This document shows, piece after piece, positions 52,501 to 55,500 of a stretch of 64,000 nucleotides of DNA. The stretch's first letter is position 1, and every line of letters starts with the position of its first letter. The position numbers were made by a program. The DNA comes from Escherichia coli. GTDB taxonomy: Bacteria; Pseudomonadota; Gammaproteobacteria; Enterobacterales; Enterobacteriaceae. The stretch lies in the NCBI RefSeq assembly GCF_024223415.1, contig NZ_CP100500.1, one strand, 5' to 3'.

Positions 52501-55500
52501 AAGGGCGTTGAGCTGTTCGCTGGAAATCGCCTCATCCGCTACCGCGAAGGTCGCCTGTTCCGGCTGGCTGACCAGCGGCGCGTTGGTATGAAAACGCAGG
52601 CTCTGGCTGACGATATCGTTGCTCAATGGCGCGGCAAGCCACACCGGCGTGTCGTTATCAGCCAGCGTCAGCAGCACGCTGGTGGTGGCGATATTCAGCG
52701 GCTGCCAGCCGCGCTTGAGCTGATGCAGGGCGACAATCACGCCCGGCTCGCTCATGGCCTTTAACAGGCGACGAAAACTGTGCTGGGCATCCTGCACGGG
52801 AAGCATAAAAGCGGTTTCCAGGGTCATGCGTTGTCTCCGCGAACCATCGTAAAGAAGTCGACCCGGCTGGCGTTCACTTCGGCCTGGCGTGCGGCAATGC
52901 GTGCCATACGGTCAGCGTCCAGCGGGGCAATAAGCGTTTCTGATAAGTTTTGAAAGTGGCGAGATTGCTGCATCAGCGCGTCAATCAGCGCGCAGCGTTC
53001 GGCGTGCTGTTTGTCGCGCCCCAGCACCCAGCTGTAGCCGAGGGTGCCGTCAGTCAGGCGTACGGCGGCGCGGGTGAGCGTGGCGTCGCCGGCAAAAAAG
53101 CGTTCGCCGGTGCCGCCCATCCGCGCCTGAATCTGCACCAGACCAGTTTCGGCAGTGCGGATCACTTCATAGTCGGCGGTGATGTTCAGCGCGTTCAGGC
53201 GGGCTGCCAGTTCAGCCGGTTGGCTGTGCGCCAGTACGGACATCCAGTGCTGGCGGGTCGCGGTATCTGCGTGCATTCAGTGCTCCATAGTGAATTCAAT
53301 CATGTCGGCGCGCGTCAGGCTGACGGAGTACTCCGCCGGGCTGCTTTCACCGTCACGGTGGTTAAGGGTGCGCACGCACAGCAGCGGCGACATATTCGGA
53401 ATTTCAAGACGCTGGCACTCTTTGGCCTGGGCGCGGCGGGCGCTGATCCGCGTCTGGCTGCGGCGCAGTGCAATCCCCGTTTGCTCGCGCAGAAAATCGT
53501 GCAGCGAGCCGCTGTCGAAGCGTTGCAGCGTCGGCCAGAGGGTGAGGTCCGCGAAGTAGTGGTCGATTAAACAGAGCGCGATGCCGTTGACCCGGCGCAG
53601 GGTGCGCAGGTGGATAACGTTCTCGCCCTCCTTGATCCCCAGCGCGTCTGCCACGTGACCAGACGCCGGGCGCAGCACCGACAGCAGTTTTTCGCTGGTG
53701 GGGTGGCTGCCCTGATCCAGCAGATTCTGGCTAAAACGCGCCTGGGCGTTAAGCGGGTAATCGAACGGGCGCATCAGCACCAGCACGCCGACGCCCTGAC
53801 GGCGCTGTACCCAGCCTTTTTCCACCAGTTGGTCGATAGCGCGGCGCAGGGTGTGGCGATTCACCTCAAAACGCGCCGCCAGTTGCTGCTCGGCGGGAAG
53901 ATAGTCGCCGCAGCGGTAGTGTTGACGAAGCTCCTGCTCAAGTTTTGCGGCTATCTCCTGATAGCGTGTTGGGTAGCTGGTCGGATGTGTAGACAAGTGC
54001 ATAGCTATCAATGCCTCGCTAATCAGATAAAGTGCTTACGCAACCGTTGAGAGAGGAAATCCAGCAGGCTGACCGTGACGATGATAAGCACCATCAGGGC
54101 GCAGGTTTGCTGGAACTGGAAACCGCGAATCGCTTCCCACAGCGTGACGCCGATCCCGCCCGCGCCGACCATGCCGACGACGGTCGCCGAGCGGACGTTG
54201 GATTCGAAGCGATAGAGGGAGTAGGAGATAAGCAGCGGCATCACCTGCGGCAGCACGCCGTAGAGGATCTCTTCGAGCTTGTTGGCGCCGGTGGCGCGAA
54301 TGCCTTCCACCGGGCCGGGTTCAATCGCTTCCACCGCTTCGGAAAGCAGCTTGGAGAGCACGCCGGTGGTGTGGATAAACAGCGCCAGCACGCCAGCGAA
54401 TGGGCCGAGGCCGACGGCGACCACGAACAGCATGGCGAAGACCATTTCGTTAATGGCGCGGCAGGCGTCCATCAGGCGGCGAACGGGCTGGTAAACCCAC
54501 CACGGCACCAGGTTTTCGGCGCTCATCAGGCCGAAGGGGATGGAGAGAACCACCGCCAGCGCGGTGCCCCAGACGGCGATTTGCAGCGTGACGAGCATTT
54601 CGGTGAGGTAATCCTGCCACTGGCTGAAATCAGGCGGGAAGAAGTCGGCGGCGAAAGTCGCCATGTTGCCGCCGTCTTTAATCAGCGTGAGCGGGGCCAT
54701 TTCCGCGCCCTGCCACGAGACGACCAGCACGGCGAGTACAACGGCCCAGCTCAGAAGCGAGAACCAGCTGCGCTTGGGTGGGGCGATGGTGATGGTTTGC
54801 ATGTTTGGCTCCGTGATAGTGTGCACGATCGGTTCCCTCGCCCCTTCGGGGAGAGGGTTAGGGTGAGGGGCAACGTGCGCGCCGATCCCCTCACCCCGGC
54901 CCTCTCCCCAAAGGGGAGAGGGAGAAAACCATTACTGCACCGCTTTACTCACCGAACTCATCGCGCTTAACGCGTTGTTCAGGCGGTCCAGGTCATCCAG
55001 CTGCGCCTGAATGGCGGTGGTTTTCGCCAGCTTGTCCTGCTCATTCAGCCCTTTATTGCCTTTCACGCCCTGCATCTCTTTAAACAGCGCGAGCTGGCGA
55101 ATCGGCACCAGTTGCAGGTCGCTGGAGGCGCGGAACGGCGCCCAGCCCAGGCGTTCCAGCACCGCTTTCTCTTCCGGCGTTTTTCCGTAGTTCATAAAGA
55201 AGTCGTAGATCTTGTCTTTGGTGGTTTCGGACAGATTCTTGCGCCAGACGATCGGATCGCCTGGGATCAGCGGCGATTTCCAGATCACTTTCAGTTCTTT
55301 CAACTTCTCCGGCGCGGAGGTTTTCAGCTTGTCGAGGTTCTCGGTGTTGTTAGTGGCAACATCCACCTGCTTGTTGGCGACGGCCAGCGCGTTGGTTTCA
55401 TGCCCGGCGTTGACGGTGCGCTTGAAGTCGCTGGCGGAGATATTGTTTTTGGCGAAGACGTAGTAGCCGGGGACGAGGAAGCCAGAGGTGGAGTTAGGAT

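Follow-up and report, generated by a model that had tools for sequence, protein, structure and literature searches.

Two forms of the phosphonate operon serve as reference points in Escherichia coli. The phn(EcoB) operon of E. coli B comprises 14 genes and is phnE+ (e.g. BL21, C3029), with two copies of an 8-bp unit in phnE and a PhnE of 259 aa, while phnE of the K-12 operon, phn(EcoK), is a pseudogene. In K-12 (MG1655), three units run from phnE nt 406 (GCTGGCGT GCTGGCGT GCTGGCGC), and the third unit shifts the frame, such that the permease is truncated at codon 190. Deletion of GCTGGCGT at nt 407-414 restored K-12 phnE and the revertant regained PhnCDE function, and the phnE+ allele of the E. 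coli B strain BL21 was moved into MG1655 to make a strain relying on PhnCDE, so that both the 8-bp deletion and the BL21 allele led to a working PhnCDE (PMC6469041). The same transporter also imports orthophosphate, and Iqbal et al. 2004, as cited in that paper, is the reference for reversible phase variation of phnE (PMC6469041).

Here we analysed a stretch of 64,000 nt from E. coli contig NZ_CP100500.1 (hereafter the window), which contains a complete phn operon. The species was supported by a 1-kb probe around phnE that matched 5,414 of 5,426 complete E. coli genomes, the best match (99.7%) being S51 (NZ_CP015995), the nearest complete genome. Gene order and gene lengths are the same as in K-12, with the genes 94-98% identical at the nucleotide level; K-12 also resembles the window in its promoter and PhoB site and in the REP-containing phnK-phnL spacer, but differs in the third 8-bp unit, the stop at codon 190 and a PhnC that is 15 residues apart. 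E. coli B shares the 14 genes, the two-unit tract and the 259-aa PhnE, but has a REP pair in the phnD-phnE spacer where the window has a BoxC/TMECO palindrome. S51 has the same promoter, a BoxC-type spacer and IS1397 at the same two sites as the window.

Results

phnE is intact and carries a two-unit tract

The original prediction held that phnE of this strain is uninterrupted, and this was confirmed: 259 codons follow one another with no stop in frame, as opposed to the K-12 frame, which stops at codon 190. Its account of the K-12 lesion as a short duplication causing a frameshift was also accurate, as alignment and published data (PMC6469041) agree on an extra 8-bp tandem unit that is absent from the window. 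The alignment to the K-12 allele, proposed at the time as a check, was run and showed just one gap, of 8 nt, at phnE nt 406-413, around which K-12 reads GCTGGCGTGCTGGCGTGCTGGCGC and the window GCTGGCGTGCTGGCGC. The window gene is in frame because its tract has two units, as in S51; no frameshift or premature stop was found in phnE by alignment to MG1655 and S51 or by a frame scan. With a two-unit tract at nt 406-421 and an open frame of 259 aa, the allele has the sequence features of the functional (phnE+) type, as in E. coli B.

The extent initially given for the gene (54023-54826) was right about the existence of a minus-strand reading frame and wrong about its start. GTG 54826, a mechanical choice, is the first start codon past the preceding stop and lies in frame upstream of the ATG at 54802, from which the gene is annotated in K-12, S51 and E. 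coli B and which has GGAG just upstream. Properly annotated, the gene is intact and begins at this ATG. Its product matched the PhnE equivalog model TIGR01097 over residues 16-258 (312.6 bits, cut-off 216.7) and likewise Pfam BPD_transp_1. The gene is identical at the nucleotide level to phnE of S51 (WP_001302225.1), and the protein was found unchanged on at least 1000 public contigs. Compared to the E. coli B allele, 19 silent or near-silent nucleotide differences and one conservative residue were found (L70 in the window, A70 in B; 258/259 identical). The same single residue (L70/A70) separates it from the K-12 protein after in-silico removal of one 8-bp unit. K-12 phnE+ revertants (e.g. RI57, PMC6469041) have the tract state of the window after loss of GCTGGCGT at nt 407-414; however, such revertants arise by laboratory selection, whereas the two-unit state of the window is common to its closest relative S51 and thus looks inherited. 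A 312-aa plus-strand ORF antisense to phnE (54032-54970) was taken as a chance ORF.

All 14 phn genes are present

Mapping each MG1655 gene onto the window placed phnCDEFGHIJKLMNOP on the minus strand at 56761-45924 (Table 1). The presence of all 14 genes from phnC to phnP, also part of the original prediction, was borne out: they follow in K-12 order, each as long as its K-12 counterpart, starting with ATG and free of internal stops, and the S51 annotation agrees in showing 14 phn genes in order on one strand. All 14 products scored above curated family cut-offs over essentially full length, 12 with NCBIfam models (C, D, E, F, G, H, K, L, M, N, O, P) and two with Pfam models (PhnI, PhnJ), the latter used because no NCBIfam model matched PhnI or PhnJ.

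The coding sequences are identical to those of S51 except for one nucleotide in phnH and one in phnL. The phnH base leads to V193 in the window, as in K-12, while the phnL base changes the last residue (S226L), 2 nt ahead of the phnM ATG, where S51 and K-12 have S; the exact window PhnL (L226) was found on 135 public contigs. Between PhnC of the window and the MG1655 copy, 15 residues differ, and these cluster at 55-74. Damage to PhnC, considered on the basis of these 15 differences and two alignment gaps relative to the MG1655 record, was rejected, as S51 has the identical protein and the PhnC equivalog model gives it 593.6 bits; the cluster is an ordinary allelic block.

The phn operon is tightly packed, although the earlier description of ATGA or 1-bp overlaps at most junctions was overstated, as these account for only 5 of the 13: ATGA overlaps at G/H, J/K and L/M, and 1-nt TGATG overlaps at H/I and M/N. 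Longer overlaps occur at I/J (8 nt) and N/O (14 nt), F/G has no gap and O/P a 1-nt gap, giving seven junctions that overlap at all and nine with a gap of at most 1 nt. The remaining gaps are 24 nt (C/D), 129 nt (D/E), 20 nt (E/F) and 110 nt (K/L).

Table 1 Location of the phn genes and associated features in the window.
Feature	Position	Strand	Basis or remark
IS1397 copies, opposite orientation	24249-25741 and 57498-58987		
phnP	46682-45924	minus	above NCBIfam cut-off, full length
phnO	47118-46684	minus	above NCBIfam cut-off, full length
phnN	47662-47105	minus	above NCBIfam cut-off, full length
phnM	48798-47662	minus	one of the set NF011981, NF007485, NF007530, TIGR03307 (phnM-phnP), above cut-offs, full length
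phnL	49475-48795	minus	TIGR02323/TIGR02324 match PhnK/PhnL
phnK-phnL spacer, 110 nt, REP-containing	49585-49476		identical to K-12
phnK	50344-49586	minus	TIGR02323/TIGR02324 match PhnK/PhnL
phnG-phnJ, C-P lyase core	50341..53276	minus	
phnJ	51186-50341	minus	Pfam PhnJ 500.4 bits; exact protein on ~990 public contigs
phnI	52243-51179	minus	Pfam PhnI 515.5 bits
phnH	52827-52243	minus	TIGR03293/TIGR03292 match PhnG/PhnH; exact protein on ~990 public contigs
phnG	53276-52824	minus	TIGR03293/TIGR03292 match PhnG/PhnH
phnF, GntR-family repressor, 241 aa	53277..54002	minus	NF007486 517.7 bits vs 363
phnE, phosphonate ABC transporter permease	54023..54802	minus	259 codons + stop, one open frame
8-bp unit tract, two units, coding strand GCTGGCGT GCTGGCGC	54382..54397	minus	phnE nt 406-421; MG1655 alignment
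In-frame upstream extension to GTG	54803..54826	minus	outside annotated gene; holds GGAG ribosome-binding site for ATG 54802
Inverted BoxC/PIT/TMECO motif pair	54835..54922	both	type B minus 54922-54887, type A plus 54835-54870
phnD, periplasmic phosphonate-binding protein, 338 aa	54932..55948	minus	TIGR03431 375.4 bits vs 261.1
phnC, ABC transporter ATPase, 262 aa	55973..56761	minus	NF007438 593.6 bits vs 365, residues 1-262; identical to S51
Predicted PhoB-binding region (Pho boxes), phnC promoter	56805..56838	minus	K-12 identity and ChIP-seq motif
yjdN (old name phnB), upstream neighbour of phnC	56894..57337	minus	NF007537 324.8 bits

The phnC promoter matches that of K-12

A Pho box had been predicted upstream of phnC, and it is supported by identity to the experimentally bound K-12 promoter, not by the consensus. 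The yjdN-phnC spacer (132 nt) is identical to K-12 at 131 of 132 positions, differing at the first base only, and contains CTGTTAGTCACTTTTAATTAAC (56838-56817) and ATTAACCAAATCGTCACA (56822-56805). In MG1655, ATTAACCAAATCGTCACA is the PhoB motif at the ChIP-seq peak upstream of phnC, and deletion of phoB lowered phnC RNA from 32,470 in the wild type to 13 (PMC10294691). The textbook Pho-box consensus CTGTCATAWAWCTGTCAY with up to three mismatches had no match anywhere in the window, and the phnC Pho box is thus a weak match to it. This poor match is in line with published data on five PhoB-regulated promoters, of which phnC had the Pho box of lowest affinity and showed the latest onset (PMC4447250). 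A GC-rich hairpin follows yjdN, just before the phnC promoter.

Two units is the majority state among E. coli genomes

Three probes were used to survey the tract in the 5,426 complete E. coli genomes. The first, 64 nt long with the window tract at its centre, matched 5,394 records in blastn mode, which was used because megablast with this probe (28-nt exact word) missed about 1,300 genomes; the K-12-type and four-unit probes provided the cross-check. At 90% identity or more, 4,383 records matched the window-tract probe, and all sampled rows span 62-64 nt, i.e. two units. Another 999 records matched at 80-90%, where 11 of 11 sampled rows span 72 nt (three units), and 12 records were lower. Reciprocally, with a 72-nt K-12 probe, identity was at least 95% in 1,009 records (at least 99% in 994 of these), 80-90% in 4,373 and 90-95% in 12, while a synthetic four-unit probe found exactly 12 records with 100% identity across 80 nt. 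Among the 5,394 matching records, roughly 81% thus have two units (open frame), 18.6% three (K-12 type, out of frame) and 0.2% four (out of frame), these counts being taken from identity bands and sampled rows and not read from each record. The three-unit share includes many laboratory K-12 derivatives; several (e.g. NCM3722, J53) were among the three-unit genomes sampled, others of which came from humans, calves, pigs and sewage.

The intact two-unit phnE is the majority state of E. coli and the broken K-12 form a minority allele. The claim of an intact phnE in this strain is correct, ordinary and already known, since published work already has most strains as phnE+. As the cryptic K-12 gene is not the species norm, models and annotations built on K-12 understate phosphonate use and PhnCDE phosphate uptake in natural E. 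coli. The tract has the properties of a slipped-strand contingency locus, i.e. a short tandem repeat within coding sequence whose unit number is polymorphic (2, 3, 4) and sets the frame, and unit switching in K-12 is documented (PMC6469041 and references there). The phnE tract stays prone to slippage: the ON state is heritable yet reversible, and the gain of a unit can switch the gene off.

Function of the operon and alternative explanations

We put at about 90% the probability that phnCDEFGHIJKLMNOP is here an ordinary functional phosphonate (C-P lyase) operon of E. coli, a type whose first description came from E. coli B. The expectation that the strain would use phosphonates without prior mutation (Phn+) is the natural reading and is supported, because phnE is intact and close to working alleles, the other 13 genes including phnF are intact and the PhoB-type promoter matches that of K-12; expression and growth on phosphonates are what we infer from these sequence features. 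Under phosphate limitation, the PhoR-PhoB system would be activated, and phosphorylated PhoB, once bound to the weak Pho boxes ahead of phnC, would recruit RNA polymerase. PhnCDE, with PhnE as its membrane permease, would then take in phosphonates, and PhnGHIJKLM together with PhnN and PhnP would cleave the C-P bond via ribosyl-phosphonate intermediates to yield PRPP and an alkane. Aminoalkylphosphonates would be acetylated by PhnO, the operon would be repressed by PhnF, and gain or loss of tract units by replication slippage would turn phnE OFF or ON. These roles in the phn pathway are established knowledge, partly restated in PMC6469041 and in RefSeq product names. The window takes in the phn operon; it does not extend to phoBR or the other parts of the Pho regulon. 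On this sequence basis, the strain is to be scored phosphonate-positive, which has little significance beyond correct annotation.

The open frame itself could be explained in two other ways. Consensus errors occasionally fall in short tandem repeats, and the window also holds a rearrangement that is possibly itself an assembly problem (see below), so one unit of a true three-unit tract might have collapsed in the assembly; however, any read is far longer than a 24-nt tract, and the identical two-unit state occurs in S51 and about 4,380 other complete genomes, which makes such an artefact extremely improbable. A two-unit tract might also be a recent phase-variation return to ON from a three-unit OFF ancestor and not an inherited ancestral state, given that two-, three- and four-unit alleles exist naturally and that K-12 readily reverts via loss of one unit (PMC6469041). 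We consider this very unlikely, as two units is the state of some 81% of records, S51 has a nucleotide-identical two-unit phnE, and of the roughly 1,009 three-unit alleles 994 match K-12 over 72 nt at 100% identity, a haplotype from which the window differs at phnE nt 402, beside the tract, and at a further 16 sites in phnE.

The remaining alternative accepts the intact genes and holds that the operon nevertheless gives a weak phenotype or none, either because the BoxC/TMECO hairpin lowers phnE translation or downstream transcription, or because of a strain-specific residue or a Pho regulon defect elsewhere. The phnD-phnE spacer (54803-54931) contains a BoxC/TMECO palindrome at the place where both K-12 and E. 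coli B carry a REP pair; its BoxC/PIT/TMECO motifs were located by a regular-expression scan, and their forms match Table 1 of PMC4666352. As RNA, the spacer is predicted to fold very stably (-87 kcal/mol, z = -8.5), with the outermost stem pairing part of the phnE ribosome-binding region, and a similar spacer was found in only about 340 of the 5,426 genomes. In addition, PhnE L70 and PhnL L226 are absent from the tested K-12 and B proteins. Against this, the same spacer type adjoins an intact phnE in S51 and about 340 other genomes, even in duplicate: the 127-nt spacer unit is single in the window and occurs twice in tandem in S51. The hairpin is not followed by a T-run, and in earlier work, as cited in PMC4666352, PIT/BoxC elements were found to lack promoter and terminator activity. 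Both proteins, in exactly these sequences, are also common alleles in nature (PhnE on 1000 contigs or more, PhnL on 135). We therefore regard a weak or silent operon as unlikely, and a polar effect of the BoxC hairpin likewise appears unlikely; an ordinary functional operon remains the preferred reading.

A scan for terminator-like consensus sequences gave 19 matches in total, compared to a shuffle mean of 13.2, and none of those on the operon strand lay in a phn intergenic spacer. It was rejected as a sign of polarity, as the weak matches are near the shuffle mean and one 'match' is the 8-bp tract itself.

The operon lies between two IS1397 copies

The two IS1397 copies bound a segment of about 32 kb that includes yjdN, the phnC promoter and the phn operon in its entirety, so that the operon stays intact. 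This segment is inverted relative to S51 and K-12, and the outer IS1397 flanks have changed places in precisely the way expected from a reciprocal crossover within the IS. Both novel inversion junctions were absent from all 5,426 complete E. coli genomes. The rearrangement may be a real strain-specific inversion or a mis-join across the 1.5-kb repeat. If it is real and the chromosome is otherwise K-12-like, the operon would have passed from a head-on to a co-directional orientation with replication and leading and lagging strands would be swapped at the 8-bp tract, which could alter expression conflicts and the rate of phnE ON/OFF switching; we regard this scenario as quite improbable, slightly more so than a silent operon. 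In the window, yjdM (old name phnA; 23873-24208, plus strand) is located 33 kb from yjdN and not adjacent to it.

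Possible inversion between two IS1397 copies

Compared with E. coli S51 (NZ_CP015995), the nearest complete genome, and K-12, a segment of approximately 32 kb was found inverted between two IS1397 copies lying in opposite orientations. The inverted segment comprises yjcO, fdhF, mdtNOP, yjcS, a sugar ABC cluster, yjdP, the entire phn operon and yjdN, while yjdM (phnA) lies outside. The flanks of both IS1397 copies are exchanged, a pattern expected from recombination within the IS. In a search of 5,426 complete E. coli genomes, neither of the two inversion junctions was found. The inversion may be a genuine rearrangement specific to this strain, or it may reflect an assembly error. 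IS1397 uses the palindromic units of REP/BIME elements as target sites. Just inside the inverted segment, each copy is adjoined by an Rfam match to the REP-derived naRNA4 (CssrE), at distances of 40 and 21 nt, respectively; this placement would fit such targeting.

Features and coordinates in the window.
Feature	Position	Strand	Remark
Whole IS1397-bounded region	24249-58987		
IS1397 copy	24249-25741		
IS1397 copy	57498-58987		
Inverted segment	25742-57497		between the IS1397 copies
yjdM (phnA)	23873-24208	+	
naRNA4 (CssrE)	25781-25851	+	40 nt from IS1397 copy
naRNA4 (CssrE)	57401-57477	-	21 nt from IS1397 copy
phnD-phnE spacer	54803-54931		inverted BoxC/PIT/TMECO motif pair, type B and type A
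phnC	55973-56761		
Open reading frame, 312 aa	54032-54970	+	antisense to phnE
SECIS_2	28320-28374	-	Rfam match
STnc630 sRNA	18391-18556	-	Rfam match, near proP

Distribution of the phnE alleles

At the phnE repeat tract (54382-54397 in the window), the three-unit, frameshifted allele of the K-12 type was present in approximately 1,009 of 5,394 records from the collection of complete E. coli genomes, 994 of which were 100% identical to K-12 across 72 nt. This allele also occurs outside laboratory strains. Another 12 records carried a four-unit allele, which is likewise out of frame. On the opposite strand, a mechanically called open reading frame lies antisense to all of phnE and extends into the end of phnD; it was taken to be open by chance.

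The phnD-phnE spacer

K-12 and E. coli B carry a REP pair between phnD and phnE, whereas the window has at this place a pair of motifs of the triplex-forming BoxC/PIT/TMECO class. As RNA, the spacer is predicted to fold with -87 kcal/mol. The 127-nt spacer unit is present once in the window but as two tandem copies in S51, and a similar spacer was found in approximately 340 of the 5,426 genomes.

Variation in phnC and phnL

Between the PhnC of the window and the MG1655 copy there are 15 residue differences. Ten of these fall within residues 55-74, and the nucleotide alignment of the two genes contains two gaps that compensate each other. Residues 55-74 appear to form a divergent block, either allelic or recombined; the S51 PhnC is identical to that of the window. 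At the phnL/phnM junction (48797-48800), one base differs from both S51 and K-12 and changes the final residue of PhnL (S226L). This base lies in the ATGA overlap and precedes the ATG of phnM by 2 nt. The exact PhnL sequence of the window was found on 135 public contigs.

Other RNA elements

Rfam also matched the STnc630 sRNA and SECIS_2, a selenocysteine insertion signal that is expected within fdhF.
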